Shown here: one piece after another, positions 3 through 63,600 of the stretch
Position numbering within the stretch: the first letter of the stretch is position 1
How the letters are laid out: each line of letters begins with the position of its first letter
The notes under the pieces: generated by a model
What the model was told of the DNA's origin: nothing
Seen by the model: only the letters and a program-made list of their open reading frames with translations
Database searches by the model: none
Source: Vairimorpha necatrix
Lineage: Eukaryota
Reading direction: 5' to 3'
Length of the DNA: 64,000 nucleotides
Assembly: GCA_036630325.1 (NCBI GenBank)
Contig: CP142732.1
Span: 682,001-746,000 of the forward strand
Position numbers and translations under genes: made by a program

Positions 3-3000
3 GTGGATGATACACGTCATAAAGAAATTTCGCGTGGAGATTATGTGGATGTAAAAGCGATTAGCTGCAAGGACCACGATAGAAAGATTTGGACTTCTAA
101 AAGGAACAAAGAAAAGAGATGTTTTATTTGCGGAAAGAAAGGCCATACAGTAGCACGGTGTAAATTCAATAGTTACCGTAGAGATATTAGCGAATCCAAG
201 AAACCCCAAGAAGAAGAAGGATAAAATAAGAAGATGGATGTAAAGGAATTTATTTATAATTACTCTGTTGCAAAGGTCAAGGATGATAGGACTACGCTCA
301 AAGAAGCTCACTGAATAATTCGGAAGTTAAATTTAAAGCGCTCATCGATACTGGTGCTGATATAAATCTAATTAGACCAGAGATTTTGCCAAATAAAACC
401 GTTGTTAATCGTTCTAAACAACAGCTTAGGGCAGCCAATGGATCGAAAATAAGGATCATTGGAGAAACAGTAGTTAAAATAAAAATTGAGGGAATGATAT
501 TTGAAGATAAATTCATTATTACTAGGGATATCACAATTCCCTGCATTATAGGAAAGGGGTTGCTCAACATGTACAAGATAAATTTAAAATTTGGAAATAA
601 CAAAATGGAAATTGAATCTGGACTCTTGGCAAAGGGAAAAGCCATAGGATATCATAAAATTATCACAAAGGATGATAACCCAATACTATTTCAATTATAC
701 AAATTGGGGGAGCAAAAGAGGATATTGCGTCCCAAATAGTGAAAGAGTATCTAAAACGTGGAATAGTTAGACATAGTGTAAGCGCATGGAGAAGCCCGAT
801 AATTATAGTCCCTAAAAAGAATGGAGACCACAGATTATGTGTGGATTATCGAAGATTAAATGATGCGACTATTAGAGATGCGTATCCAATGCCTAGAGTA
901 GAAGAGTTCATCAACGCTTTAGAGGGAGCAACATACTTTACTAAATTAGATGCTGAATCGGGCTATCACCAAATAGATATGGCGCCTTGTGATATTGAGA
1001 AGACAGCCTTTGCCTGTAGAGAAGGCTTATTTGAATTTACCAAAATGCCATTTGGACTTGTTAATGGCCCAGCTACATTTCAGCGGGTGATGAATGGTAT
1101 ATTGAGGGAATTTTTGTTTAAGTTTGTTGTAGTATACATGGATGATATACTAATCTATAGTAAAACTGAAGAAGATCATAAGAGAGATGTTCAAATGGTA
1201 CTAGAAAAGCTCAAGTCGGTAGGGCTTAAACTTAATAAGGAGAAATGCGAATTTAATAAGACCGAATTAAAAATTTTAGGTCATGTAATATCAAAAGAGG
1301 GAATAAGTGTGGACGAAGAAAGAGTTAGGAGCATTCAACAGTTACCAATTCCTAAAAGTAAGAAGAAATTACAATCTTTGTTGGGGCTGTATAATTATTG
1401 CTCTAAATTTATTAAAAACAGCCATAAAGTGGTTAGCCCACTATTCGATATAATAAGACTCAAGAATGAGGACGCTGATATTTTTTGGAAAAATGCAGAG
1501 AATGATGCAAAATACTGTAAGGCAATCGAAGAGGTAAAACAGGCAATGAAGAGAACAGCTTTATTGACAATTCCAAATTTAAAGGATAAATTTATATTGA
1601 CTACGGATGCATCGAATGAGGGAAGTGGGGCAACATTGGCTCAGATGGTCGGAGGAAAAGAAAAGATTATTTCTTATTACAGCTCTTTACACTCCAAGAC
1701 AGAAAAAAACTATTCTACTACTGAGCAAGAATTGCTAGCAGTTATAAAATCGATTCAAAACTTCAGGGAATATTTATTATTGGGGAAATTTACGCTAAAA
1801 ACGGATCATCAAGCTTTAAAATATTTGTTTAAGTCTAGGAATGTAAAAGCTAGGTTGGCTAGATGGTCATTACTGCTACAAGAATATGATTTCGACATTG
1901 AATATATTACAGGACCATCAAAACATACAGATCACCTAAGCAGAGATTTTTAAAACAGGAGGAGATAGTTTCAGAAATAAGTTCAATACAAAGGAAAATA
2001 GTTAAAAAAGAAAGGACAATAGTGCTATTAAAGTTTTACCATGATTTATTAGGGCATGGATCAAAACAAAATATGAAATATAATATTGGTCGAAAATTTA
2101 CTTGGAAGAATATGAGTAGAGACATAGAAAATTATGTAGATAATTGTGAAATTTGTCAAAAAGAAAAACCTCAGAGAAAATTTAGAGATATTATACCATT
2201 AGTAACAAAGACAATAGGAGAAATTTGGGAAGTAGACATAGTAGGGCCCTTGAGAGAAAGCGAGCAAGGATATAAATTTTTATTGACAATGATTGATCAC
2301 TTTTCGAAAATTGCAGAGGTGGTGCCGATTTATACAAAAGATATGAATACGGTTATTTATCTGGTAGATAAACATATAGTCAGGAAGTATGGTATTCCAA
2401 AGGCAATTCTATCTGATAATGGTAAAGAATTCAAAAATAATATCTGTGAGGAATATGCGAAATCCAAAAAATTCATCTGGAAATATGGTTCCCCTTATAA
2501 ACCTACAACCACGGGGCTTGTTGAGAGGTTTAACAGGACAATAGCCATAAAATTAAGGAAGGTTACAGAATTTGGGAAATTTGATTGGGCGAAATGTGTC
2601 CCTAAAGTAGTCAGAGCCTATATGCAATCATATCATAGGGCTATAGGGTGTGCACCAATAGAACTCTTAACAGGAATAGTTCCAAATAAGATAGATATAC
2701 AGGAAGGAATGCATCTAACAAAGGATAAGAAAGAGTTTCAGGAGCAGGCGATTAAGAACTTGGAAGTTTACAGACAAGAATATGACACGGGTAAACAAGC
2801 TAATTCTGTTGATAAAGAGGCCATTAAGGTGGGAGATAGAGTTTGGTATTATTTAATTTTACCGTTTAGAGGAAAACTCGAACCAAAATGGGAAGGAAAA
2901 GGAGTGGTAGTAGATAAAAAATTTCATTCATATAAAGTTTTATTAGATGATGGAAAGACTGTTACAGCAAGCCGAAATCATGTTAAGCTTTTAAAGGAGG

Positions 3001-3005
3001 GGTAG
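3..3005 (+). pseudogene. gag-pol polyprotein split into four ORF pieces (3-224 gag, ~290-739 protease, 739-1953 RT/RNase H, ~1955-3005 integrase)
   Basis: Domains are consecutive but in different frames, with shifts near 230, 720 and 1950. Confidence 0.85.
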
Positions 3006-3115
3006 TGTAGGAAGTGCTACACATGTCAAATATATGGTGTCATTGTTTTGACATATTTGACATGTCGTTTCTTTAAATATTTTATAATAATTAAACCCAT
3101 GTTTTTATCCCAACA
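3006..3115 (+). repeat. Probable 3' LTR (~110 bp, TG...CA)
   Basis: Starts with TGT directly after the PPT; contains a hairpin (ACATGTCAAATAT/ATATTTGACATGT) and CCCATG. The end at CCCAACA is inferred because the 5' LTR is not in the window. Confidence 0.55.
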
Positions 3116-4161: not shown

Positions 4162-4431
4162 TGTCATGTCCTCAAAACCATGACATCTGTGTTTTACTGT
4201 GTTAAAACTTAAATCAGTAAAACACTGCCCCGAACGAATAGTCTAAGGCGGAGATCTCTAACGATCGGACATGAAACGTTGTGTTTCATAAATAAATATA
4301 AATAGTCCAAAAAAGTTAGAAGACACCGAGCATGAAGAGTAACTTTAATAACAAATCAAATAAAAAGAAATATAATACAAATATTTTAGAAATGTATTTA
4401 AAAAACGGAGATATTACTCCGGTTCATGTCA
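4162..4431 (+). repeat. 5' LTR (270 bp)
   Basis: Direct repeat of 6708-6977. Confidence 0.95.
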
Positions 4432-5252
4432 TTTTGAATTCAAAGACATTAAATGAACAAAACGAAAAACGAAATAACGAAGATGACTATATACAAGTCA
4501 AAATCAAAGTTCCAGACTCGGACCTGGAATTTACGAAGAAATTAAAAATAATAAAAAACATCGAAAAATTCGATTTCATTCCTTGGTTTAAGGTATTTGA
4601 AGAAATAGCCACACAGAACAAATGGAATGCTGAACAAGGCATCATGATACTACGAAATTTAATTACTGATCGACGCCTAGAAGCGGATATTTTCATTACA
4701 GATGCAGCAACAACCAAAAGAAACTTAATTAAACATATTTTTGAGCAAGATGCTAAAGAAATGTTGCAAGAAGCCTTTAAGGTAAAACAAATAGATTTTC
4801 TTTTTATAGAAAACTATTATGAAAAGATTTACAACAAGATAAGTATCTATAGCGCTTATTACGAAATAAGCAAATCGGAATTTAACAGACATTTAAGCGA
4901 ATGCTTTTATCAAGGGTTAGGAAGAAACTCTACGTTTGAAATAATAAAACATAACTTAGGCGAGAACGTCTTAAATGCTTATAATCACCTAAAAAATATT
5001 GAGAAAATGATTCGAAAGAAAGCAGAAACTAAGAAAATAAACAAGGTGTCTAATGACGAGCCAGTATATCAAGAAAGAGAAGGATCATACAGTAAAAAGT
5101 TTTCAAACAAGACGAATAACCCAAGATCTTCGTATATAAATAAATGGTGTTCTATACACAAAACACTAGCCACGACACCAAAGACTGTTATTACAATAAA
5201 GACCGACAAAATGAAAATAAGAAGAAAGAAACGAGAGAAAATCTTAAGATAA
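4332..5252 (+). CDS. Gag-like protein; frameshifts into the PR-IN frame near 5160
   Basis: First ORF of the LTR element, ATG lies inside the LTR; ends in the first half of a zinc knuckle (WCSIH). Confidence 0.7.
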   Translation: MKSNFNNKSNKKKYNTNILEMYLKNGDITPVHVILNSKTLNEQNEKRNNEDDYIQVKIKVPDSDLEFTKKLKIIKNIEKFDFIPWFKVFEEIATQNKWNAEQGIMILRNLITDRRLEADIFITDAATTKRNLIKHIFEQDAKEMLQEAFKVKQIDFLFIENYYEKIYNKISIYSAYYEISKSEFNRHLSECFYQGLGRNSTFEIIKHNLGENVLNAYNHLKNIEKMIRKKAETKKINKVSNDEPVYQEREGSYSKKFSNKTNNPRSSYINKWCSIHKTLATTPKTVITIKTDKMKIRRKKREKILR

Positions 5253-6697
5253 TCAAAGAACCAATAAAAGTAATAAATGGAATTGAATTAGAAGGTTCAA
5301 TTGAAAAGAAAGAAACCAGATTTTTAATCGATACTACAGGTGCCACAAGAAATTTTATTAGTAATAAAAAGATCAAAGAATTGAAATTATCACCCATTGA
5401 AGATGTGGAAATCCAAACAAAATTTGCCAATGAGCAAAAAGAAATAACTAACAAAACAGTACTTGTTAGAATAACATTAAAGAATCTAATGAAAGAAAAA
5501 TACGTAAGATTTTATATATTAAAAAACAACAGCGATGATGTAATATTAGGAAATGAATTCCTAGTCGCAAATGAAGCAATAGTAAATTACAAAGAAGGAA
5601 CAATTTATGTAGGAAGTGAGAGATTGAAATTTCTACATAACGACGAATGTTGCGAATTAGACGCAATGTTATTTGAGAAAATGAATGTGTGCAAACAGGT
5701 AGATGAATGTGCATTAAAAACAGAAAATAAAAAGAACTTTAAAAAAGATGAAAAAGAAAGAATTTATATTGACAGAAAAATGACTAAAGAATTTATTAAA
5801 TTTGTCCACGAATTGTCGGGACATTGCGGGCAAGTAATCATGTATTTAAACTTAAAAAGATGGTACAACATCATAAACATTAGAACAGTTATCCGCAAGA
5901 TATGCAATCAGTGTATCGTATGTAAAGAAAACAAGGATTTTAAACAACAGAATCTAGAAAGAAATAAAATAGATAGCAGTGCACCATTTGAAATAATAAG
6001 CACAGATATTTTTGGTCCTTTTCTCCTGGAGGAGTTTGAGGGCGACTCTCTAAACCATAAGGGTTATATCTTGACCATAACCGATGTGTTTTCGAGATTC
6101 ACGAGAATTTGGTTTGGTGAGAAGTTTAGGAGTGAGGAAGTTATTATGTGTTTAAACGAATGGAGTGATGATTTTGCGAAGCCTAAAGCGCTAATTTCGG
6201 ACAATGGTCCGCAATATAAAAGTAAAAAAATGAAAGATTATACTAATAAAATACAAATCGAACATCGTCTAATACCGATATATTACCCCCAAAGCAATGG
6301 AATTTCAGAACGTATAAATCAAACAATTGCAGAAGTGCTGAGAATGAATATAGGAAAGAATATAAAACACATTATTATGCAAATTGAACATCGGATAAAT
6401 AATAATGTTAATACCACACTGGGAATTGCGCCTAGAGAAGCAATTTATAAGAATAGTTTTTATGACATTGAGAAAAGGGTTAATGTGCCATTTTTGCGAA
6501 ACATACCTGCAGTTGAAGTGAACTATAAGCGACGTATCGCAGTAAATGACATTGTATACTTAAAAAATTATAGCAATAATAAACTCGAGCGGAAATACTA
6601 TGGGCCGTTTAAAGTTATGGAAATCGGTAAGAAAGGAAGTTGGGTTCGACTTAAAGACATGCCCAACTGGGTTCATATTAAACAGTTGAAGCTGTAG
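5144..6697 (+). CDS. Aspartic protease fused directly to integrase
   Basis: FLIDTTGATRNFIS and ILGNEFL protease motifs, then HELSGH...CNQCIVC, STDIFGP, ISDNGPQY, SNGISER and YYGPF; no YxDD motif. Confidence 0.88.
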   Translation: MVFYTQNTSHDTKDCYYNKDRQNENKKKETRENLKIIKEPIKVINGIELEGSIEKKETRFLIDTTGATRNFISNKKIKELKLSPIEDVEIQTKFANEQKEITNKTVLVRITLKNLMKEKYVRFYILKNNSDDVILGNEFLVANEAIVNYKEGTIYVGSERLKFLHNDECCELDAMLFEKMNVCKQVDECALKTENKKNFKKDEKERIYIDRKMTKEFIKFVHELSGHCGQVIMYLNLKRWYNIINIRTVIRKICNQCIVCKENKDFKQQNLERNKIDSSAPFEIISTDIFGPFLLEEFEGDSLNHKGYILTITDVFSRFTRIWFGEKFRSEEVIMCLNEWSDDFAKPKALISDNGPQYKSKKMKDYTNKIQIEHRLIPIYYPQSNGISERINQTIAEVLRMNIGKNIKHIIMQIEHRINNNVNTTLGIAPREAIYKNSFYDIEKRVNVPFLRNIPAVEVNYKRRIAVNDIVYLKNYSNNKLERKYYGPFKVMEIGKKGSWVRLKDMPNWVHIKQLKL

Positions 6698-6707
6698 GGG
6701 GGCAGAC

Positions 6708-6977
6708 TGTCATGTCCTCAAAACCATGACATCTGTGTTTTACTGTGTTAAAACTTTAATCAGTAAAACACTGCCCCGAACGAATAGTCTAAGGCGGTGA
6801 TCTCTAACGATCGGACATGAAACGTTGTGTTTCATAAATAAATATAAATAGTCCAAAAAAGTTAGAAGACACCGAGCATGAAGAGTAACTTTAATAACAA
6901 ATCAAATAAAAAGAAATATAATACAAATATTTTAGAAATGTATTTAAAAAACGGAGATATTACTCCGGTTCATGTCA
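6708..6977 (+). repeat. 3' LTR (270 bp)
   Basis: Direct repeat of 4162-4431. Confidence 0.95.
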
Positions 6978-11868: not shown

Positions 11869-12494
11869 TTTAGGGATGGAAATATTTAACACATGTTGGA
11901 TGTCATGAAATTTTCAGGAAATTATTCAAAATTTTACACTCAAAATGAATTAGCATATTACTCAAAACAAACTAGATCTAACTAATTGAAAGTTCAACAT
12001 GAACTCTTCAAATCCTAGAAGTGTTGTACTTGAGTTGTAATAATCTAATATGTTATAAGTTACACATAATTATTGGGGCAAAAGATGCCCAAGCAAAGTG
12101 GAAGACGCCTGGCCTGTGCAGATAAATTTAACATTATCCACGTAGAAGCACATGTGTTACGTATAAAAGTAAAATTATAAAAGAGTAAAGATAACAGGCT
12201 TGACATCAAATCTTTAATATGTTTAGATGCTAAGAAATATCTATTAGTAAGCCATATGCTTCTATGTATTACTATAAATACAAATCTAAGTTAATTTCAT
12301 ATGATAGAATTTATAATACAAAAAAGGCCAATGCTTAAAATGATTCTATAAACTCGCCGTACAAAGTAGAGAAAGTTTAAACATATTTCATATGCATTGA
12401 GCTACTGCTTTTTACATGTCCAAATGTTTTATACATACTAAAATTAAAGATTGTTAAACATAAATCCCGCACAAGAATAGTTCCTTATAAGATA

Positions 12495-12735
12495 TAGTAG
12501 TGACCAAATATCACAGAAAGTACATCAGGGGGTATAAATCCGACCCTACCTTGAAGCATACATCCAGTCTATTGTTTACAATAATCTAAAGTTTATCTCA
12601 TTCTAAAACGACGACGAGGATACGATCAAGAGAGGAAGAAGTGGCTATGGCGACTGTCAAAGAAATGGTGTCGTTGATTTTAGAAGTTCAAAGTTGAAAA
12701 ACATAAATAATTCCACAGAAACCACAGTCTATGGT
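12495..12735 (+). mobile_element. 3' remnant of the RLE-type non-LTR retrotransposon
   Basis: GTGACCAAATATCACAGAAAGTACATCAGG and ATAATTCCACAGAAACCA are shared with 47198-47470. Confidence 0.8.
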
Positions 12736-12869
12736 GAGTTGACCATATGTGACATATCTTTAAGTCGTACTAAAATATCTATATTAGATAAATATAATTA
12801 ACTACGTGTTTTAAGAATAATCTAAAATTTATAGAAAGTTTTCTTAAGTGCCCTTCAGCCCCCCTCTTC

Positions 12870-39496: not shown

Positions 39497-41104
39497 GGTG
39501 ACCGGAATTTTCGTCCCGGTGGTAGGGGTTAAAAAAATAAAAAAATAAAAAATCTCGGTTTTTTATTTTTTTAACCCCTACCACCGGGACGAAAATTCCG
39601 AAAAAAAAAATAAAAATAAAACTTTAATATTTCAATAATTTCAAAGACAAAATCTAAACCAACCCCTTCATCCACAGTTTTGTTTAAAAAATTAGCTAGC
39701 CGAATCTCTTTTTCAATGTATTTTTGTTTACGTTCAAAAACATGATTTAAAATTGTTTGTTGGATTATCTTGATTCGCACTATATCTTCTTCATCCTTTA
39801 ACTTGCTCACTAATAGATAAAAACTGTATCGACTTGTACCAAATGTGTTTTTAAAGGTATTATGCCAACCTTCAATCGCATTATTAGTTCTTGGAAAATC
39901 TATATCCATTTTATTTCTCGTATGCCACAAATTCGGCGGAAAACGACATCCTAAATCAATATAATTTGTAAAGAAATAGGCATATAACTCAGTCAAGCAT
40001 TCAGGGAAATTTCTGTCTTGTTTTAATTCCAAAAAAGTAGACAATATTTCGTCATATTCAACATATGCAAGTGCCGTAAGAGACAAAACAAATTTTTTCA
40101 CCATAGGTGAACATGTGTAAACAGAAGAAAGTCCTGAACTTTTAACACGTCTATCAATAGCCTGGGCTAAGTGAAAAAGACAACCCGAAATTTGACAATC
40201 CGAGAAAATTATTGAAAATGCTCTTATCGCAGCATACTCAAAATCGGGTTTTATCAACCTTGGGTTGAGCTCTGGAAACCTTCTCTTTAACAATTGAAAC
40301 AAAAAACAATAGGTTTCAAAACTTTTATCTTTTAAAATTGCAAATATAATCGGAAATACATGCGCTTCACGGATAAAACTAATTGTGTAAAGTTGATAAT
40401 ATGGAATTGGAACCACCGTAAAGGTCCCATCCATCGCCCACATGTCATATAGAGCCAGTTTTCCCATAGCTGAATCTGTATAAAAAACTATTATACTGTC
40501 ATTGGGTTTATCACTCCCGCAATTTTCAGGCCCATATCGATACCATTGTTCGCCTGTATGACTGATTAATTAATCAGCACATAAACCCAATGTTTGGTTG
40601 GCGTATGGTTTTGGATTTAAGAAATTTAGCCTAGCTTTCCTTAATATCCTCGCAATAGGCTCAATAGGGCCTATTGCGGCGATTGTTTCTTCACCAGCTC
40701 TTCTTAAGGAAGAAAAAAATGTTTCTAGAAGAATCTTTGCCAGAGATAATTTCCCGTTTCATTTTATCTATTTTATTCTTCCTACAGACCTGTTCAGGAT
40801 TTGGTTCATGATTATGAGGCGAAGAAATAATAAAGGATTCGAGATTATTGACGTAAACAATACTACTAATGGCCTTGGCATTACAGCTTCGTACAATGCA
40901 GCGCCACTTTATAGTAGTATTGTTGATTCTTTTTTTCTCGTAAATATATAGATTTTCATCTATTATTTGGTCCATATTTCTTTTGCTTTTAATGATCCTT
41001 TTTGTCCCGGTCATAGGGGTAAAAAATAAAAAAAGAAAAAAGTTCGTTTTTTTTATTTTTTAATTTTTTTAACCCCTATGACCGGGACGAAAAGACCGGG
41101 TACC
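39497..41104 (-). mobile_element. Mutator-like (MULE) DNA transposon
   Basis: 9-bp TSD GAAAATAAG at 39488-39496 and 41105-41113; imperfect TIRs GGTGACCGGAATTTTCGTCCCGG / GGTACCCGGTCTTTTCGTCCCGG. Confidence 0.92.
39571..41014 (-). pseudogene. MULE transposase (FLYWCH-like zinc finger plus DDE), disrupted
   Basis: WRC...C.A...HNH in 40691-41014; DGTF, DFE, GCLFH and TNNAIEGWH in 39571-40467. Confidence 0.88.
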
Positions 41105-41607
41105 GAAAATAAGTAGGATTTCTCAGCTGTAGGTTTGGAAATGAACATGAGTAAGTCTGCGACTAACTGTATTGACTGTAGCGAAGATGCAGTAATATTA
41201 GAAGGGCATCAAGGATACAAAAACCTTGGAATAACAGAGGATGCCTCTTGTGCTGTCAAAAGAGAGACTTTTGAAAAAGTAATAAATAAGATCCTACAGA
41301 GGGTTAGAAACTGTGCAAGACTCAATTAAATGGTAAGAATATGATTTTAACTATAAACAAGCATGCAATATCAGTAACAAAAATCTTGTAGGACTTCTTA
41401 CAGTCCATTTCATTTTTATAGGCACTTTGTTTCATTTTTATAGGCACTTTGTTTCATTTTTAAAGACACCTTGTTCCATTTTTATAGACACCTTGTTCCA
41501 TTATTTTTTACACCTTATTTAATAATTATAGAACCCTCATTTCATTATGATAGAACCCTTGCTCTAAAATTTATTTTACTTTACTTTATAATTTTCAATC
41601 CTTAAAT

Positions 41608-42716
41608 ATGAGAAACCTAAATGTCAGAGAAGAACTTGAGGAATATCGTACAGAAGAATCATTTGTCGAGATAGAAGATGAAACGCAGTCTTCTACCCCA
41701 ATTAAAACCAGGAAGATGATTACGAGGTCGATAATCGAAAGTTTTCTTTCGTTACTCGACACTGGTATGAAAGTTATTTATATGGAAGTTGCTTTAAATC
41801 TCAGTAAGTCTAACGTCAAACGCCCATATAAAAGATATCTTACGAGAGAATTTACTAACCTTTCAACTTTTAAGAAGGCAGGACAAAAAAAAAGAGTGAA
41901 TCTTTAAAGACATTTTTATGGTTATATATATTATTGCAACGGAAATAGCCTTGATTCCTTGTCTATATCTTTATTATTTATCCGATAAATTGCAAAATGT
42001 AAATTCCACGGGACATTACTTTATGTCAACTGTTTGCAGACTTGTTAAAAAATAAGGGTATAGTTTTAAACCCCCCCCCCCCCCGACCTTGATTCCACTA
42101 AGCAGAAACAGTCCTCAGAACAAGCTGTTAAGGTCTCAATATGCGAGAGTAATAGATATCATATCAAATGATAATTTAAATTTTCTCGAAGAACCCGGTT
42201 TAAATCTGCACCTTAACAGTACTTTTGGTTTTTCTTTAAGAGATACTAAGTGTTGTGTAACAGTCCGAATTCGAAAGGGACTAATGTTTCTTTAATGTAT
42301 GCTATAAGCGTTAAAGGATTATATACGCATAAAACTAAAGTCGAAAGTTTTAAATCGATAGATTTTGTCGAATTCATTAACAATAATGACCTATTTGTGA
42401 GCAAGAGGAAAACAGAGTTATAATATTGGATAACGCATCTATACAAAGAACAGCCGAAGTAGCTGTTGCTCTTAGAAACAAAGGATACACTCTAAAACTT
42501 ATCCCTCCATATTCTCCACAACTAAACCCCGCCGAGGAGTTTTCTAACAGTTTAAAGTCCCAAGTAAAACAGAGACCTAGACCAACAACCACTCCTTTGT
42601 TAATTGATTGTATTGAGGACGTGTTGGACACAGAAGTATTCGTCATAGATGGTTACTTTTCTCATAAGAGAATTTATCGAGAAAGCTCTTGTCAATGCGG
42701 GTTTTTTCTGAATTAA
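41608..42716 (+). pseudogene. Tc1/IS630-type transposase, fragmented
   Basis: LDNASI and PPYSPQLNPAEE motifs; multiple frameshifts. Confidence 0.85.
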
Positions 42717-42861
42717 TGAAATTAAAAATTTTAATTTAAAAACTTCTAAGATGTTTTCATTGTTTGCCATGTAAATATTGATGTTTATATCTTTATCTTT
42801 ATCATTATCTCTTCTTTACGATTCAACTATATAAATAAATTATGAAAAAAATAAAAATAAA

Positions 42862-45800
42862 TGTGATATATTTGTATAATTTCTATCCCCATTATGATAA
42901 ATAAAGACATGGGGGCGATACCGAATCGTCAGTTTACAAGTGTGGACTGTGGTCTAGAGGCCAAAAAGTTAATAAAGGAAGTTAGAAGAATAATGTATAG
43001 GTTGGAGATGGAGGAAGTAGAAATCAGTTTGTGGAAGCAGAGAATATTTATGGAAGGAAGTGAAGAAATAAAAAATTTCATGGTAGAAAGAATTAGTAAA
43101 GAGGACGAATATTATAAAATAATTGAGAAATTAGAGGAGGAAATATGTAGAGAAGAAAGAACTAAAAAAGAAGAAGAAAATAGGAGAGAACTTATGGAGG
43201 TTATAGCTGAGAATGTTAGAGAAACTGTGAGAAAAGAAATTCAAGAGAAAGATTTAGTTTTAAGGAGTACAGTACAAGAAATAAGAAATAATAGGAATTG
43301 TTTTAATTGTGGTAAATTTGGCCATATGGCTAGGAACTGCTATTTAGGAAGGAACAATAATCAGAAAAATAATAAAAAGTTTAATAAGTACTTAAATTTA
43401 GACGAAAACCAAAGTTGTAGTAGCAGTAATGATAATAAAGAATATAAACCAAGTGGAAAGACAAAACGAGTTAAGTTAAAGGAATGTAATAATAGTGATA
43501 GAAGACATAAAGAAAGAATATATGCGAGCAATAAAGAGACGAAAAGAAGATTACTGAAGAGGGAATTTACGTTGGAAGATCTCAAAGCGGAATATGAAGA
43601 AGTTTTTAAACAAGGAGATGAGGTTATAAGTTATTGTACATTAGAGAAGTGTAAGATAGATACTCCAGAGGGTAAGAAGATAGTCAGAAAGGGACAGACG
43701 ATCCCACAGGCTTTGATCAAACAGACTGAGGAATATATTAATGATTTAGAAAATAGAAAAATTATAAGAAGATCGTCTTCGGAATGGCGAAACCCAATAA
43801 TAGCGATACTTAAACCAAGTGGTGAAGTAAGAGTAGTTAGTAATTTTATAGGGTTGAATGATTTAGTCGAGAAAGACCCGTATGAGCTAACGAATATGAG
43901 AGAAATAATAAGAGCTACGCAAGGGTCGATAATATTTACTGTTGTTGATTGCAAAGAAGGATTTTACCATTTTGAAATCGAAGAAAAAGATAAACATAAG
44001 ACGGCGTTTGAATTTAATAAAAAAGTTTACGAATGGAATAGTATGGTGATGGGATACAAAAACTCCCCACAGATACTACAGAGAACGATGAATATGATTT
44101 TTGAAGATTTGCGAGGAAATGGTGTTGAGGTATACATGGACGATATAGTAATACATGCCAACAATAAATGTAAACACGATGAATTAGTAATAGAGGTTAT
44201 AGAAAGAATTAAGAGAAATAAAATGAAATTAAATATTGGGAAAATACAGTTTAGACAAGCGGAAGTAAAATTATTAGGTGTGACGCTGAATGGAATAGAC
44301 ATGACGGCCGACGAAATAAAGAAAAATGAAGCCTTGGAGTATCCGGATCCAAAAACTTTGACGGAATTGAGGAGGTTTCTAGGATTGACTGGGTGGTTCA
44401 GACCATTTATAAAAGATTATGCCGGGCTGACGTTGAAAATGACAGATAGTTTGAAGAAAAATGGCAATTCGTGGAAATTTACGGAAGAGATGAAAGAGGA
44501 ATTTACTAAAATGAAAAATGTTTTAAGAAATATGGGAAGACTAAGATTACCGGACTATAATAAGGAGTTCATACTAAGAACAGACGCTAGCAATTTGAGA
44601 TTGGGTGCGGTGTTACTTCAGAAGAATGAGAATGGGGAATGGGTTGCTATACAATGGGCATCTAAAAAGCTAACACCTACCGAAATAAGATATGGAATAT
44701 CAGAAAAGGAAATGCTTGCGATATATTGGGGCATTGATAAATTTAAATACGAGTTAAGAGGTAGGAAATTCAAGATAGAAACGGATCACAAAGCACTGGT
44801 GGAGATAAGAAATAAACCGTTTTTTTAATAATAACAGAATAAATCGCTTAATCGAGAAGATACAGGAATATGATTTTATCGTTGAATATAAAAAACCTGA
44901 TGAGATGGTGGTAGCAGATGCGTTGAGTCGAATAAATATGGAAGAGGATATTAAAGAAATGAAAAATAAAGAGCGAACAATCAAGCAAACAGAAGGTAAA
45001 TGGAAAGCACATGTTTCTTCCGAGAATGGAAAGCAATATTGGCAATTTGACTCAGGACGTAAAGTTGAAATACCACCTGAGAATATAAGGAGACAATTAA
45101 TCCAAGAATATCATGAAAAAGTAGGCCACAGATGCATGACAAGTGTTTATTATGCAATGAGAGAAGAATACTATTGGCCAGGAGTAAAGAAAGAAATAAA
45201 CGAGGTTATAAAACAGTGTCAGAAATGTCAGATATATAACAGGAAAAATATGGGTGGTTGTGAATTTGTAGATACGTCGAGATACATAGAGAAGGTTGCA
45301 TTAGATTTGATAGACTTTAGAAATTAGAAGAAATATGTTTTAGTTGCTATCGATTATTTTACACGTAGAGTATGGGGAGTAGTTATAAATAACAAGTCAA
45401 GTAATAATGTTGTTGGATTTTTGAAAAGATTATGTGAGCAAGGGAAGAAACCAGAAGAAATTATTACAGATAACGGAAAAGAGTTTATTACGTGGAATTT
45501 AGAAAATTTTGTAGAGATCTCGATATAATACACCGACAAGTAAGTATAGAAGCGCATAGAAGTAACGGAAGAGTAGAGCGTGTTATAGGAACTTTGAGAG
45601 AAAGTATTTTAAAGTCGGATGCGAAAACTTTTGAAGGTAAAGTATATAAAAGTATCGATGTATATAATCAGAGCTATCATACGGGAATAAAATGTACACC
45701 ATTAGAAGCGACTGAAGATAAAACTGGAGACGTAATGCTTGAAAATAGCCCTTTAGGGAAATATTGTAATAGGTTTGGAAAAGGAAAGATCGAAAAATTT

Positions 45801-46079
45801 AGCAAAGGTCAATTGGTAAGAATAGCTAAACGAGAAAATGTGGCAGGTGTTAATAAGTATGAAAAAGGAAGATTTTTGGATACAGGAAAAATTGTTGAAA
45901 AGTGTGGAAAAGATTCTTATATTGTAAAACTTAGTAATGGTAGGCTTGTGAAGAAGAGACATTATGATCTGAAGGGTATGCTTGGGGTAGATGTGAAAAT
46001 TAGATGAGACTAACCGTCTTGAGGGGGGGATGTGATATATTTGTATAATTTCTATACCCCATTATGATAAATAAAGACA
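42862..46079 (+). mobile_element. Compact Ty3/Gypsy element (3218 bp) with 48/49-bp LTRs and no protease
   Basis: LTRs at 42862-42909 and 46031-46079 (TG...CA, one indel), TSD ATAAA, TGG-starting PBS at 42910, PPT GAGGGGGGGA at 46021-46030. Confidence 0.93.
42894..46007 (+). pseudogene. mini-Gag-RT-RNase H-integrase polyprotein, disrupted
   Basis: CFNCGKFGHMARNC, YMDD, TDAS, HHCC, TDNG and SNGRVER motifs; frameshifts near 44825 and 45490 and a stop at 45325-45327. Confidence 0.9.
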
Positions 46080-47925
46080 ATAAATTTTATAACAAGGGGT
46101 CTATAAAAATGAAACGAGGTTTTTATAAAAAATAAATGAGTTGTCTTTTAAAATTTAACAAGGGTTCTATAAAAATAAAATGAGGTGTCTATAATTATGA
46201 AACAAGATGTCTATAAAAATGAAATGGACTGTAAATTAGAACCAATAGATTTCTAAAGTCTCGATTTTGATATCCGACAGTTACTTATTAAGTACCAGGT
46301 CCATCTACGGCCAGCCTGCAAGGAAAGACTATACCTACCTAGATCCGAATTTGGTAGAGGCCTCATAAGTATCGAATATAGAAGCGAAAATATGCTTCTG
46401 AATATTTATAAAACAACAGATGAGTATAGAAATAGCTCACTAAGACGAACAGCGATACTTAAAGTAGAGGCAGAGAACAAATCGCACTTGTTTACAACTA
46501 ACGAGTATATAAAGATTAGGTATAGCTTTGTAGGAGAGATAACCCAGAAGATGCTAATATAATCCCCCAAAAACGCTCTACAACAAAATTGACATAAGGA
46601 CAAACCATGGAAAGTTGTTTAAAGCTAGGAGTAATGATTTAGTAAGCATTAGGGACTCTTCTGACTGGCTGGTTAAGGAAACAATCAGGCCAGATTCGAA
46701 GCAATTTACTGCTATCTACAGAATAGAAATATTTTCTGTTGACAAGTGGGACAATGTCCCCATTGTGGATCTCATAGGAAGACCGTGAATCATTTAGCTA
46801 CCTAGTGTGATCGAATGTTTGGTTTTGATTATATGAAAAGACACAACGAGGTATTTTGTTGCATTTATCTCTTACTATGTATTTATATGGGTTTAAGAAG
46901 GCAAAGAAATACATGAACACTCGGTACAAGAGATCGTGGGAAATGATCGTGCAGAATAAGAGTAGATACGAGAATTTCCACTAATACAAATGTGACCCAT
47001 AATAATCCGGATATTCTTGTATTTGACAAGACGAATAAGAAATTTTAATAGTTGAAGTTGGTATAACCAACCCATATCGACTTATTATAGTCGAGAATGA
47101 AAAACTAAGAAAATATGGACTTCATGCAAATGAACTGGGACTAATACATAAATCTCGGACAAGAATAGTTCCTAATGTAATGACATGAGATGGAGTGGTG
47201 ACCAAATATCACAGAAAGTACATCAGGAAGCTGGAAATCCAACCCTACTTGGAAGCAAACATCCAGTCTATTGTGATTAAGAAAATATTAGAATCCACCT
47301 TGATGGAACGACGACTAGGATACGATCAGCAAGATGCAGGGAAGAAGTAGTGGCTAGAGCTGTAAGCACACTAGAGAATATGGCGACTGTTAAAGAAGTG
47401 GTTTCGGCAAAGGGAAATGGAGCTGAAAAAAGTGAAGTTGGAAAGTATTAATAATTCCACAGAAACCAAAGCCTGTAAAGAGCTGAATCTTATGACGATG
47501 CCGGGGAAAAATGTGCTATGAATATCTAAGCTTAATGATAAATTGGCTCAATAAAACTTTAAAATTTCTAAGTTTTGAATGCTTCTTAGGTAAAAACCCC
47601 AAATATCAATAGCCCTTGAACTCAAAACGGTTATTAAGAAACATAAATTTATTTATTTGATCAATTTATGGTAAATATTAAATGATGTTTTATATATCAT
47701 TGATGAAAATTTATACTTCCAATAATAGCACATATAATTCATCGTTTAATAGAATAAATTGATCTTAAATACTTATTCTCGTAAAAAAAGTACCATATTA
47801 TTATATCAAAATAAAGATTATCTTTATATAGTTCTTTGATGTAGAAATTATTGCAAAAAAAATCAATTTGTATCAGTAATGATACAGCTAGATTATTGCA
47901 AGATCCAAGCTTTACAATGAACAAA

Positions 47926-48775
47926 GGCTGAAGATGCCCAAACACCCCCCCCTCCCCCTCAGAGGGTGTTCACTTTATTTTTTCGAACCCCAAAATTGAA
48001 GTGCAAAATAAAGGAGGAGCAAAGAAGAGACAAAAATTACTAAGCACTTATTACATTAAAAACAAAAAATAAACATACGTTTATGTACAGAATTATATTT
48101 TAATTTAAGTTTGTATATTTATAACAATTGATAAGCAGTTTTTACCCTTCTGATTTATTAGAATTGGGGACCAAAATGCCTTCCTCTGAGGGTGTTCACT
48201 TTATTATTTTGAACCCCAAAAACGAAGTGCAAAATAAAGGAGGAGCAATCATTAGCATTCAAATTACTTGCATCTTTAAACAGTAAAAATACCAAATAAT
48301 TATATATTTGTATACGAAATTTAATTTAAAAAAAGAATATAATCATAAAACTACATAATTTTAAATAACTTGGCATCTTTCAAATTAATTTTTTTGATTT
48401 AACAATCTGTATAGATCGTTGAACATTTATTTAAATTTTCTTATATAAATAATATTTATAATTTTAATTACTGGTTTATTATAAAAGTAGATTTTTGAAG
48501 AAAATCTACTTTTATAATAAACCAGTAATTAAAAAAAAATTTAGAAAAATAAGAAGGGCAAAAAAGATACAACACTTTAAATTATTATTAGAACTACATT
48601 TAAAATTAATTTTTGTATACAAGCATATATTTTTTTGGTATTTTTAATGTAATAAGTACTTAGTAATTTTTTTCTCTTCTTTGCTCCTCCTTTATTTTGC
48701 ACTTCGTTTTGGGGGTTCAAAAAAATAAAGTGAACACCCTCTGAGGGGGGGGGGGGTGTTTCGGATCCTTCCTCC
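47926..48775. mobile_element. Non-coding long-TIR element (MITE/foldback, probably Merlin-mobilised)
   Basis: GG...CC ends, 8-bp TSD TGAACAAA at 47918-47925 and 48776-48783, imperfect TIRs of >130 bp. Confidence 0.85.
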
Positions 48776-56556: not shown

Positions 56557-57179
56557 AATATAAATACAGAATTTTTTATTTTTAGCCCTGTTCTTCGAAA
56601 GTCGAAGCGGAAAATATGCTCAAGAGCAAAAATCAAAATAATAATTTCTAATAAAATATCATAATTACCAAAAATAAATAATTTATCTTTCGTTTTTTTT
56701 ATTATTTCTTCTTACACTTGTTGATCAAGACTTATCTTTATTGCACATTGCAATGTTCTTTAGAGATAAGTCTCGATTTATCTTTATATAAACAATATAA
56801 TATAAAATTTTTACATCTTTTTAACGCATATCATTAACATATATACAATTATGTAAATGTATGATATTTTACTTTTAGACGGAAAATATAATATATCATA
56901 TGAAATGGATGTTTTATAATTATTAAATCTTAAAAAAATATAAGTATTACATATTACAACATTGTTTAGCTATAAAAAATCAATGAAATACAAAAAAAGA
57001 CCAAATTAATCCATATATACTATAAAATAATATGAACCTAACCTAGAATTTGTTTACGATAAAAAAATAAGTAAAAAATGTTTAATATAACTAAAATATA
57101 TTGTAATGACTAAAAATTGAAAGATATTTTCACAAATTTGAGTGGTTTTAAATGCATATTTTAAAGTAATACATTTTTG

Positions 57180-58202
57180 GGCTAAAGTAAGCATTAGCTA
57201 CAAAAAATCGATATAGGGTTTTTTTGTTTTTTTTTGCCCCTTTTTTTTAAAAATGGAGGAAAGAATTCGGACAAGAGAAGAATTGGAGATCATGTATAAT
57301 GATCTAATAATAAAGAAACAAAATAAAAAATGTAGCGTCTGAAATTAAAAAATGAAGCAAAGAGGGGAGCAAAGAAGTCTCATAAGGTGTCCATGGAGCT
57401 CTTGTAAAAACACAATTTCAATTTGGAATGGAACTTTCTTTCAGGAGTCCTCGCTAAATCACATTACAATATTACAAAACTAAATTTATGGATTTTAGGT
57501 TATTCACGTAAGTCCATTTCTCAAGTTTTAGGTTGTACTAAATCTTCTATATCTTCCATTATAAAAAATTTAAAACACATGAGTCTTTATGATAAGTATT
57601 TATCTAGTATAGGGACTATTGGAGGCGATAATACTATAGTGGAAATTGATGAGACTAAGATTGGGAAGAATAAATACAATAGGGGGAAGTTAGTAAAAGG
57701 ATTTTGGTGTTTTGGAATGGTTGAACGTACCATCCAACGTAGAATCATAGTAGTATATATTAAGAAAAGAGACAAAAGAACACTTACTGAATTTCTTTTA
57801 AAATATGTAAGTAGAAGCAGTATTATATATAGCGATATGTGGAGAGCGTATCATTCTTTAAATACAATGTTTAAACAACATCATATGGCTAATCATACAT
57901 TACATTTTAGAGATCCGAATACAGGAGTACATACCAATACCATAGAAAGTATTTGGTTATCTCTAAACCATTCTATACCAAATAGAAACAGATCATAGAA
58001 TAGCACTAAACTTTATTTATTTAGATATATGATCCAAAGAAACTCCACAACTCCAGTGTTTGAAGATTTATTAAAATATTTATTCTAGTTTTTATTTTTG
58101 TTCCTTCCTCATCATTTTCTTTCCTCCATTTTTTAAAAAAAGGGGCAAAAAAAAACAAAAAAACCCTATATCGATTTTTTGTAGCTAATGCTTACTTTAG
58201 CC
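57180..58202 (+). mobile_element. Merlin DNA transposon (second family)
   Basis: ~80-bp TIRs GGCTAAAGTAAGCATTAGCTAC...; 8-bp TSD CATTTTTG at 57172-57179 and 58203-58210. Confidence 0.94.
57253..58088 (+). pseudogene. Merlin (IS1595-type DDE) transposase, disrupted
   Basis: VEIDETK, KYNRG, IYSDMWRAY and HTNTIESIW motifs; stops and frameshifts at both ends. Confidence 0.88.
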
Positions 58203-58859
58203 CATTTTTGAAAAGATTTACAATAATGTTTTATTGAATATTAATCAAATTAGATCTTAATTTGACCTTTTTTAATGCAATGTAGATTTTTGTTTGTTCC
58301 TTTCCGCTCTAGACGCTTCGACTTTCAAAAACAGGAATGAAAGTAAAAAAACTCTGTATTTATACTGACAAGGTGGGGCTAATGTGAAAATTAGCCTACT
58401 GTATTATGAAAGTATTTAAATATGATGTAGATATATGCAAATAGCTAAGAATACATATAAAATAATTCGTTTACAGACCGAATAGTCTTTATTTGATGTC
58501 ATTACTGCTTCTCGGGAAGACAAACACGATCTACGGTTTCAATTTATTTCTTAGTGTAAAAAAGTAGGATTAAACATGACATTATCAACACTCTTACATC
58601 TTATAATAATTTAATTTATTGCATAAAAAAAATATATTAACACAGTTTATTGTATCATTCATATTTTAACCTTTATGTATAAAAAAATTATTTGACTCCA
58701 TTTGCAATACAATATAGTTTTTATTGATACTTGTTATAGAATAATAAAACGTAAGAACAGTTTAAATTTATTTATTAATAAAAAACTTGATTTTTTGCGT
58801 TATTAAAATACAAATTGATCAGAATATTCAATAGGTGTCACATCACAATAATATCTACA

Positions 58860-60617: not shown

Positions 60618-63600
60618 TGTAGGGTTTAGAACCCTTAATAAATAAATGGTTAACATGGCGAACACAAGGATGAACAGGGAAACAAGAGAGTCCCGTAGTC
60701 AAGAGGCTAGAACATTAGAGAAAGAGGCAATTAGGATAGATAAGAGACTAAAGTTAATATTGAAAGTTGAGAAAGTTGAGTGGAAAGATGTTATGGATTT
60801 GGCATCTGCGAACTTGCAGGATTATATTTTTGAAAATTTTTGTGACGGAAGGAGCAGTTGGGAGGAAATTTATAAAGGCTTACAAAAAGGAGCAGAATTT
60901 GAGAGAGAGTCAGAAGAAAGACAAGAAATGATTAAAGAGATTATGGATAAAGTGTTGAAAGAGTTTAGGGAAGAAAGAAAAGAAAATCTTAGGATGTATA
61001 GGAAAAGAAGAGAAATCAGAGAAACTACAAAATGTTTTATATGTAAGAAAGAAGGGCATTACGCTAGAGAATGTCATGAAAGTGTAGCTGGTAGGGAAAA
61101 ATATAAAATTAAAAAGGAACAAGTTTTACAGAAAGAACCAATTATCAACAATGAAGGGAAAAGATGTAAAACAGTAAATAAGTTAGAAAATTTAATTGAA
61201 AAGTATCCGGAAGTTTTTAAAGAATCAGAAGAAAAGATAAAATATCTCACAGGAGAGAAGTGTCCAATAAATACTAAGCAAGGTGAAAAGGTTGTGAAAA
61301 GAGGGCAGAATGTGCCATACTACCTTAGGGTGAAATTTGAGGAGTACTTGAATAAGTTGGAAAATAGAGGGGTTATAAGACGTTCCAAAAGTGAGTGGAG
61401 GAGTCCAATAAGAGCACTTGAAAAACCAAATGGGGACGTAAGATTGGTAAGCAATTTGATGGCGTTAAACGATTTGGTTGACAAGGACCCGTACTCACTA
61501 CCGTTAATTAAGGATATTATGAGAGCCACACAGGGGTCAAAAGTATTTACGGTTATCGACTTAAAAGAAGGGTTTTATCATATTGAGATTGAGGAGCACC
61601 ATAAGCACAAAACAGCATTTGAAGTGAATGGTCGAGTATACGAATGGAATAGTATGGTTATGGGGTTTAAGAATTCGCCTCATATAATGCAGAGAGTAAT
61701 GAACAGAGTTTTAGATGAATTCAGAGGTAAAGGCGTGGAAGTATATATGGATGATATAGTTATTCATGGTAAAGACGTAAGAGTGCATGACGAGTTACTA
61801 GAGAGGGTAATTAAAAAGTTTAAAGAGTGTGGGTTGAGAATAAACCAAACAAAGATACAATACAAAAAAGATGAGGTGATGTTGCTGGGAGTAACAATTA
61901 ATGGGGAGGTCATGGGACCGAATGAGATTAAAAAGCAGGAGACATTGGAATATAGAAAACCTGAGAATGTTAGAGAGTTAAGAAGATTTTTAGGACTAAC
62001 TGGTTGGTTTAGAGACTTTATTCCCAACTATGCGTATAGAACAGTAAGGCTTACTGAGGCTTTAAAGAAAGATGTTAAGTGGAATTGGACGGAGGATATG
62101 GAAAGAGCTTTTGAGGATATGAAGCAAGGCTTGAGAGATATGAAAAAGTTGAAGATTCCGGACGGAAAAAAGCTATTTAGAGTAAGAACTGATGCGTGTG
62201 ATACGGGGATCGGAGCAATTCTATTACAAGAAAATAAAGAGGGTGAGTGGATTCCGATACAATGGGCATCGAAAATGTTGACTCCTACCGAGCGAAGATA
62301 TACGATAAGTGAGAAGGAGATGTTGGCGGTGTTTTTTGGAATAAAGAAGTTTGAAAGTGATTTGAGAGGAAGGAAATTTCATTTGATGACGGATCATAAA
62401 GCATTAGCAGAGATCAGAAATAAGCCATACTTCAATAATAACAGAATAAACAGATGGGTAGAACAGATACAAGAGTTTGACTTTACAATAGAGTATGTGA
62501 AAGGGGAGTTGATGACAGATGCAGATGCGTTAAGTAGGCAGTATGATCAGGTAGAAGTTTCGGATGAACAAAAAGAAAAGGACAACAAGAGAAAAGAAGT
62601 GATCGAAAAACAAATTTTGGGAAAAAAGCAGAAACATATTAAAGAAAAGGACGGTAAACAGTATTGGGAATTTTCCACAGGTGAGGTGAAATAGATATTG
62701 AGCCTAGATAGTAGAGAACATGAAATAACAAGAGTACATGAGGAGTTAAACCATAGAGGTGTCAAAGGCACTTATTATAACATTAAACAAAGATGGTATT
62801 GGCCTGGTATGAAAGATCATATTAATAAGGTAATTAAGAATTGTGAAATATGTGGGATTAACAATAGGAAAAACACAGGAGGATGTGATTTCGTAGTAAC
62901 TAGAAAGAAATTGGAGAAAGTGGCGTTGGATTTAATGGACATAGGTGGAGAGAATAGGTATGTGTTACTGGGTATTGATTACTTTACTAGAAGGTTGTGG
63001 GGTTCGAATTTGAGATGTAAAGAGAGTAGTGAAGTTATAGAGGTATTACAAAAGTGGATAAGGGAAGATGGATTTCCAGAGGAATATGTGACAGACAACG
63101 GAAAAGAGTTTGTAAGTAATAGATTTAAAGAATGGTGTAGTATTAATGATATTAAACATAGGAAAGTGGGCTTAGAAGCTCATAGGAGTAATGGTAGAAT
63201 CGAGAGATGCATCAGAACTATAAGAGAGACATTGATAAAGCAAAATGATGGGAATATTTCTGAAAAGATAGAAAGAGCAATCAAAGGATATAATAATACA
63301 CTACATACAGCAATAAAATGTACGCCGATGGAAGCGTGGAGAGATCAAACTGCTGAAGTTATAATTGAAAATGATGAAAATGGAAAATATGCTGGTCGGT
63401 TCAAGAGAAGACACAGAGAGACATTTACAGTAGGCCAAGAGGTAAGAATCGCTAGGAGAGAAAATTTAGGTACACGTGCGAAAACAGACAAGGGAAGATT
63501 CACGGGACGCGGAAGGATCGTAGCTATAAGTGAAAATGATTCATATATTGTGAGACTACTGGATGGTAAAATTGTTAAAAAGAGGCATTATGATTTGAAA

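Follow-up and report, generated by a model that had tools for sequence, protein, structure and literature searches.

The element at 42862-46079 of the window (the whole 64,000-nucleotide stretch of Vairimorpha necatrix DNA analysed here) is a recently inserted and now broken miniature LTR retrotransposon of microsporidian Ty3/gypsy descent. Its anatomy and lineage can be taken as practically certain; the full reading, in which its polyprotein would also work without being cut, carries about an even chance. More novel than its short LTRs are the lack of a protease and a Gag that is reduced. The features on which this description rests, together with the host transposon and a second, related element, are the following.

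41401..46231, + strand: Tc1/mariner-type DNA transposon hosting the retroelement in its right end; TA-flanked, with a decayed DDE_3 frame
42857..42861, no strand: left TSD, ATAAA, present as a single copy in empty Tc1 paralogues
42862..42909, + strand: 5' LTR, 48 bp, TG...CA, with an AT-rich stretch
42887-42890, + strand: CCCC in the 5' LTR
42894, + strand: start codon ATG in the 5' LTR
42894..44828, + strand: first piece of the polyprotein frame, 644 aa (1037 aa unbroken in copies L004-L006)
42900-42905, + strand: AATAAA in the 5' LTR
42909-42911, + strand: second in-frame ATG, made by the LTR/PBS junction
42910..42923, + strand: PBS, pairing over 14 nt with the 3' terminus of host tRNA-Pro(AGG), CCA included
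42951..43163, + strand: N-terminal domain, small and helical, probably one capsid lobe of C-terminal type (weak matches)
43164..43295, + strand: long charged helix, predicted coiled coil
43296..43340, + strand: one CCHC zinc knuckle (nucleocapsid; Pfam PF00098)
43341..43568, + strand: disordered K/E/R-rich linker at the position of the sister clade's protease
43371-43391, + strand: N-K-x4-Y motif within the linker, like the opening of the sister protease
43626..44288, + strand: reverse transcriptase (RT), YMDD (PF00078; fold matches include the Ty3 RT 4ol8)
44478..44813, + strand: RNase H, running on beyond the first break (PF17917/PF17919)
44809..46007, + strand: integrase (IN) in three broken pieces, including the C-terminal beta domain
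45073-45243, + strand: H2C2 zinc domain of the integrase, the integrase core starting at 45328
46021..46030, + strand: PPT, G-rich, adjoining the 3' LTR
46031..46079, + strand: 3' LTR, 49 bp
46080..46084, no strand: right TSD, ATAAA
60618..63692, + strand: family F element, with 38-bp LTRs, tRNA-Arg PBS, TSD TAATA, no protease and an in-frame stop at 62692-62694

The element measures 3218 bp and its two TG...CA LTRs differ by a single gap. Direct LTRs of this kind with a TSD of 4-6 bp, a tRNA PBS 3' of the 5' LTR and a PPT 5' of the 3' LTR are those of Ty3/gypsy elements, as are a gypsy-type RT and the order RT-RNase H-IN, the tree outgroups being likewise gypsy-type, although not curated GyDB references. 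Among 56 of the 63 tRNA loci of the genome, the PBS matches tRNA-Pro(AGG) best, over 14 nt, the runner-up reaching 8 nt. A 5-bp TSD would match by chance with a probability of about 0.002. Every feature that the preliminary description had listed (CCCC, ATG and AATAAA in the LTR, the TSD ATAAA, adjoining PBS and PPT, about 3.2 kb in all) was found at 42862-46079. The copy is broken at three places: the frame ends at 44826-44828, an in-frame stop lies at 45325-45327 and the frame changes near 45.49 kb.

The host element at 41401-46231 is Tc1-like, with inverted ends carrying 22-bp subterminal repeats. In nine of its 14 other copies the insertion site is empty, a single uninterrupted 5-mer that is exactly ATAAA in six; three further copies have local variants and two are not scorable. 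These empty copies with a single ATAAA bear out the earlier proposal that the retroelement entered the Tc1 transposon in its present form. The empty form was also seen in contigs of one sequencing run, perhaps not independent of the window, in which the absence of an LTR-LTR circle joint is uninformative.

Many copies of the same design exist in the genome. A protein search of the genome gave 73 matches, 30 of which were examined as loci and a further 15 fetched, and six families (A-F) with LTRs of 38-49 bp were recognised. Family A, which includes the window element, has 12 two-LTR copies, all with LTRs of 48-49 bp and all but one with a perfect 5-bp TSD (11/12); the window copy is 97.5-99.2% identical to ten sister copies. 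In L004-L006 the frame is open throughout (1037 aa) and encodes a single gag-pol polyprotein, as in microsporidian Group 1 elements. The first 25 bases of the family A LTR occur 59 times in the genome, against none for the reversed control. Perfect TSDs flank the scored copies of family B (48-bp LTR; 11/11), family D (49-bp LTR; 9/9) and family E (49-bp LTR; 1/1). Among 30 loci of family F, 26 are two-LTR copies; the TSD is perfect in 22 of these, and in 22 the two LTRs are identical. The 49-bp LTR of family C ends in TA, and its TSDs were left out of the scoring. The clade to which these families belong, hereafter the mini clade, has transposed recently.

Its enzymes are under purifying selection. 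Between families A and B, pN/pS is 0.14/0.84 for RT-RNase H and 0.16/0.81 for integrase, and within family A a value of 0.004/0.020 was obtained; pN far below pS argues that these enzymes are the element's own. Catalytic motifs of the mini-clade enzymes are intact. The linker between knuckle and RT is the fastest-evolving region of the polyprotein. The three breaks in the window copy and the one-base difference between its LTRs might suggest that the short LTRs and the missing protease are products of decay, or of misassembly, in one or two copies. Against this stand the six families, in which dozens of insertions arose independently and each have a separate TSD, the purifying selection and the recurrence of this design in some 50 outside proteins and in a consensus from Anncaliia algerae; the survey of copies rules this explanation out for all practical purposes.

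Small LTR size is a trait of the lineage, since fresh TSDs accompany LTRs of 38-49 bp in six families and the two window elements belong to a single clade. In an RT-RNase H tree (FastTree, 120 sequences, three short proteins left out) this clade also contains some 50 outside proteins, a few of them assigned by name to Nosema granulosis and Enteropsectra breve, the outgroups being named or domain-typed search matches. A second tree (IQ-TREE fast mode, 48 sequences) gives the mini clade an SH-aLRT of 99.4 and joins it, at 98.4, with a sister clade that has kept its protease. The RT/IN phylogeny with mapped LTR lengths envisaged in the preliminary description, built here on RT-RNase H, thus places the two elements together. 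The sister families (L163, L173, L179 and L180, together with the protein P0055) form the nearest RT-RNase H clade and share with the mini clade a single ORF whose ATG is located within the LTR or right at the LTR end. They have a tRNA-Ala PBS, LTRs of 57-87 bp and a length of 3.3-3.5 kb. They differ in having kept a protease (DTG/DSG) and in their Gag, which has two parts, measures about 200 aa and contains what by eye is an MHR-like motif. LTRs of other families in the genome range from 70 to 350 bp. The LTR size of the mini clade is therefore the end of a gradient that passes through the 57-87-bp sister families and, as the protease is intact in the latter, LTR shrinkage preceded protease loss.

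The LTR/PBS junction can also be traced in the outside proteins. The junction Met motif is present in 28 of 37 outside relatives with a full N-terminus, compared with 2 of 66 controls, and the residue preceding it is D, Y, H or N in all 20 relatives with an upstream Met, as follows from an LTR ending in ACA before TGG. A metagenome scan yielded three true relatives among seven loci (L136-L138), each truncated or interrupted. Many outside relatives lie on assembled pieces of about 3.0-3.2 kb, a length compatible with that of the element; these pieces are uninformative on LTR length because assemblies break at repeats.

The preliminary description had regarded the 60.6-kb element as homologous but well diverged, and this is borne out by the open-frame copies of families A and F, which share 257 of 430 residues in RT-RNase H, 108 of 226 in integrase and 17 of 70 in the N-terminal lobe. 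The claim that both have the same layout does not hold: the 60.6-kb element has a 38-bp LTR, AATAAA between CCC and ATG, and a tRNA-Arg PBS.

The short-LTR trait taken alone is less new than was first supposed, having already been tabulated once. Table S1 of Parisot et al. 2014 (PMC4202319) has a row for Aalg_retro_L of the distant microsporidian Anncaliia algerae, a complete element of 3127 bp with a 50-bp LTR and an ORF at 32-3049. The row lends the claim of a stable lineage trait independent support, but also goes part of the way towards the refuting condition of the preliminary description, prior recording of the short-LTR architecture. The architecture is thus on record in print, without comment in the main-text passages of that paper, and a term search of its main text gave no occurrence of 'protease'. 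Aalg_retro_L, assigned there to the 'Microsporidia Group 1' Ty3/gypsy elements, is similar to the window element in its LTR, its ORF beginning at base 32 and its size. By eye, it also has CCC-ATG in the LTR, the ACA|TGG junction, a similar N-terminus and one CCHC knuckle; unlike family A, it has AATAAA before the ATG (as in family F) and a different PBS. The tree text of the same paper puts it next to Nbr5 of Nosema bombycis, and the window element probably lies near retro_L and Nbr5 in Group 1, a placement by eye and from that text. In paper listings and the openings of abstracts, no description of protease-less or tiny-LTR microsporidian elements was found; one may exist in Repbase, GyDB, the 2006 Nbr paper, subscription papers or bioRxiv supplements. 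LTR terms are absent from the main text of PMC7313128, passages of PMC11358816 gave no minimum LTR figure, and PMC13174016, in the parts consulted, mentions Ty3 LTRs in general terms only.

Some signals in the LTR are more widespread than the mini clade. The start codon lies inside the LTR in 36 of 38 longer elements of this genome and in 43 of 50 complete A. algerae elements; it is a general property of microsporidian gypsy elements, and its proposed status as part of a special minimal design is ruled out. It can be attributed to the promoter biology of the host, as in microsporidian genes the start codon is closely preceded by a CCC-like motif and the 5' UTR measures <7 nt, according to the parts of PMC2803860 consulted. 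Of 23 ORFs in the window, 14 have CCC or GGG no more than 12 nt from the ATG, compared with 8% of all ATGs. A promoter consisting of an AT-rich stretch and CCC before the ATG, with so short a 5' UTR, may be what allows the LTR to be tiny. From the sequence, U3 would be about 30 bp and minus-strand strong-stop DNA about 16-22 nt. The position of AATAAA, also put forward as a shared design, holds for the subclade of families A, B, D and E, where it follows the ATG at a distance of 4 nt from the end of the LTR. Families C and F, like retro_L, have it upstream of the ATG, so that AATAAA after the ATG was rejected as a clade-wide signal. Given the general figure of cleavage about 20 nt downstream of the signal (cited in PMC2803860), the predicted poly(A) site of families A, B, D and E would be at or beyond the LTR end.

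No Pfam aspartic protease was matched in either window element, in both of which the knuckle, RT, RNase H and integrase were recognised; this trait had been passed over in the preliminary description. The same is true of 33 of 34 aligned proteins of the clade and its vicinity, the exception being the boundary sequence P0051. As a positive control, PF13975 was scored at 150 places of the genome and exceeded its cut-off at 146 of them. Pfam can miss proteases of this type, the match to the sister protease of P0055 being weak, and a profile was therefore made from the sister-clade protease. It recognises every one of its own five sequences, as well as P0051; among 34 other long elements of the genome it detects 20 (E<0.01), and no mini-clade protein is matched at E<0.1. 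In the model predicted for the 1037-aa protein, with a mean pLDDT of 80.5, a beta fold is lacking between knuckle and RT, and residues 154-223, the expected place of the protease, are disordered. A DCG motif near the N-terminus was considered as a protease site and rejected, as no hydrophobic strand precedes it and only 6 of 31 proteins carry it. Canonical Ty3/gypsy elements have an aspartic protease between Gag and RT; none was found here, and the element is therefore filed as a protease-less derivative and not as canonical Metaviridae.

What occupies the protease position is a charged linker of 61-110 aa, in which no motif common to all mini-clade members was found. The sequence N-K-x4-Y, which opens the protease in all five sister sequences and in one of 26 other elements, follows the knuckle in 17 of 41 mini-clade proteins (shuffle mean 0.38, maximum 3), a statistic that ignores kinship, for a motif picked after the data had been viewed. 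This patch is read as a remnant of the protease start. Stepwise relatives can be arranged from a degenerate protease site in P0051, through P0049 with none, to the N-K-x4-Y remnant in the mini clade.

Gag also appears reduced. A median of about 132 residues precedes the knuckle, forming three short helices and one long helix; in terms of a two-lobed capsid, there is space for only one lobe of about 70 aa, with a weak match to a C-terminal lobe. The N-terminal lobe profile aligns with the second capsid lobe of the sister clade (HHalign 48%, P 1.8e-4, 64 columns), a weak match, compared with 14% for the first lobe and P 0.3-0.4 for reversed controls. In fold searches, the Arc C-lobe (Z 5.6, rmsd 2.7, 64 aligned residues) appeared among unrelated helical matches, with the RSV capsid C-terminal domain at Z 5.2 and that of Ty1 at E 2.1; these matches are not significant, none for this lobe reaching E 0.001 or Z 8. 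A sequence-profile comparison of the domain with the PDB gave nothing meaningful, and multi-knuckle proteins dominated the results of a wide profile search. One retained capsid lobe of C-terminal type is thus a reasonable lead, not a result, and the capsid is probably reduced to half.

It can be proposed that host polymerase II starts just 5' of the ATG in the 5' LTR, and that one RNA would serve as both message and template. The ORF begins inside the LTR and reads through the PBS, which would give a single polyprotein with Gag parts and enzymes at 1:1. Priming by tRNA-Pro at the PBS would produce a strong-stop DNA as short as about 16-22 nt that transfers to the 3' copy, the plus strand would be primed at the PPT, and integrase would generate 5-bp duplications in AT-rich DNA. 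The polyprotein, of about 120 kDa, could act on its own RNA without being cut, oligomerised by the remaining capsid lobe and the coiled coil; the knuckle would bind RNA and tRNA, and RT and IN, still fused, would function within a ribonucleoprotein that has no complete capsid of the element's own making. Both the transcript ends and the uncut state are deduced from sequence. For the uncut state the odds appear balanced, in view of the variable linker length, the lack of a universal site and the absence of the remnant motif from the most active family (F). Its wider form, a self-sufficient element without protease or closed capsid, working with an uncut protein of about 120 kDa, an RNA of 3.1-3.2 kb and LTRs of 38-50 bp and reached by LTR shortening, protease decay or deletion and loss of a capsid lobe, is advanced more tentatively. 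That protease is needed for transposition of Ty1 and Ty3, as the titles cited in PMC6952103 indicate, counts against the uncut model. The N-K-x4-Y patch of 17 of 41 members could also be a cleavage site.

The main alternative is that the element is a semi-autonomous parasite, with its own RT, RNase H and IN, that docks via its capsid lobe into the particles of protease-bearing gypsy elements, most simply the tRNA-Ala sisters, and is cut there in trans. Potential helpers are plentiful, since families that carry a protease, and have open frames as well as fresh TSDs, abound in the genome, and complementation in trans does occur here, as a gypsy family in the window that lacks RT has spread to at least six sites with separate TSDs. 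The best match of the N-terminal lobe is the C-lobe of the sister, and the frequency of N-K-x4-Y among the 41 linkers far exceeds that of the shuffles. The helpers, the spread of the RT-less family and the processing needed by the yeast elements (the titles in PMC6952103) are what give trans-cleavage its standing, that of a rather unlikely but serious possibility. On the other side, the motif is missing from 24 of the 41 members, the very active family F among them; an I-N-E-like stretch preceding the sister protease is, by eye, lost in the mini clade; the linker evolves faster than any other region; and the mini clade has diversified over distant hosts. The RT-less gag-PR-IN family itself, at 4162-6972, was rejected as a dedicated partner, since its PBS type and lineage are different. 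Alternatively, an autonomous element might have its disordered linker and RNase H/integrase junction cut by a host protease. The linkers at residues 154-223 and 674-686 are indeed exposed or of low confidence in the model, but no site is conserved, and this route seems improbable.

To our knowledge, proteolytic maturation within a capsid is regarded as obligatory for LTR retroelements of the integrase type. An old and still-spreading clade without protease and probably with half a capsid, which for the specialist is the surprising part, means either that this rule is broken or that there is a new dependence between LTR families, whichever of uncut action and cleavage in trans applies. The mini clade also illustrates the stripped-down limit of a retrovirus-like element and provides a lower bound for a working LTR, with promoter, start codon, strand-transfer homology and both attachment ends within 38-50 bp. 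LTR finders with a default minimum length near 100 bp probably miss such elements.

In Ty3 of Saccharomyces cerevisiae and Tf1 of Schizosaccharomyces pombe, the LTRs measure about 340-360 bp, the capsid is two-lobed and the protease is essential. These Metaviridae, of which Tf1 has a single ORF, share with the window element the LTR-PBS-PPT scheme, the order RT-RNase H-IN, the 5-bp TSD and the RT fold (matching 4ol8); in contrast to them, the mini clade has LTRs of 38-50 bp, probably one lobe and no protease. DIRS-type elements replicate without an aspartic protease, by means of a tyrosine recombinase, and have split or inverted repeats and no TSD; the window element differs in its DDE integrase (rve and H2C2), direct LTRs and 5-bp TSD. 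TRIM/SMART elements, as presented in passages of PMC3281118, are also very small, with short terminal repeats, a PBS and a PPT. They are non-coding and non-autonomous, whereas the window element codes for RT, RNase H and IN, all of them under purifying selection.

The Tc1-like element that carries the family A copy under study (target-site duplication, TSD, ATAAA) has been entered by a mini element more than once in this genome. Another copy of the same Tc1 (loci L133, L181 and L194; contig G000:C5 near 1.054-1.058 Mb) contains a family F mini element, inserted in the opposite orientation, and its target 5-mer directly adjoins the ATAAA site used by the family A copy. Since two independent insertions among 15 Tc1 copies have thus struck adjacent 5-mers, there is a hint that the AT-rich right end of Tc1 is an insertion hot spot.

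A solo LTR of 49 bp with a perfect TSD is found at L215 (G000:C1:977436), the single case among 30 LTR loci examined; repeats this short therefore do recombine. In family C, the LTR ends in TA instead of CA (loci L030, L107, L111, L112 and L116), and copies of this family retain open frames of 1014 aa despite this ending.

Two relatives at the boundary of the clade are each represented by a single sequence. Protein P0051, whose position in the tree is unstable, has a protease-like domain in which DRG replaces DTG, and P0049 has a two-part Gag, with neither protease nor knuckle. On a metagenome contig (L136 and L137), a mini-clade element that lacks a start and an LTR of its own is fused in frame to the RNase H end of a different gypsy element, which precedes it; this junction could represent either a nested insertion or a misassembly.

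The window also includes several other elements:

889-3005, gypsy element of the longer type with RT, RNase H and integrase, truncated where the window begins
39497-41104, element with a MULE domain, each of its terminal inverted repeats being in turn a long hairpin
46257-47350, decayed coding remnant to the right of Tc1
47944-48759, non-coding inverted-repeat (MITE-like) element
57157-58225, non-coding inverted-repeat (MITE-like) element

The arms of the two MITE-like elements are 109-222 bp long. The decayed remnant resembles 12487-12742 in part and is possibly a non-LTR element; a Pfam search with one of its frames gave no match.

A further gypsy family, located at 4162-6972 and at loci L244-L248, is 2.8 kb long with LTRs of about 270 bp and codes for Gag, protease and integrase, RT and RNase H being absent. 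The existence of at least six near-identical copies, each with a separate TSD, shows that this family spreads in trans. In a clade of 4.1-4.3-kb elements (loci L161, L164-L166, L168-L172 and L174-L177), the position of the tRNA primer site is taken by a short palindromic sequence, either TTGAATTCAA, TTGAGCTCAA or a variant; the short palindrome site in the window is at 4433-4444.
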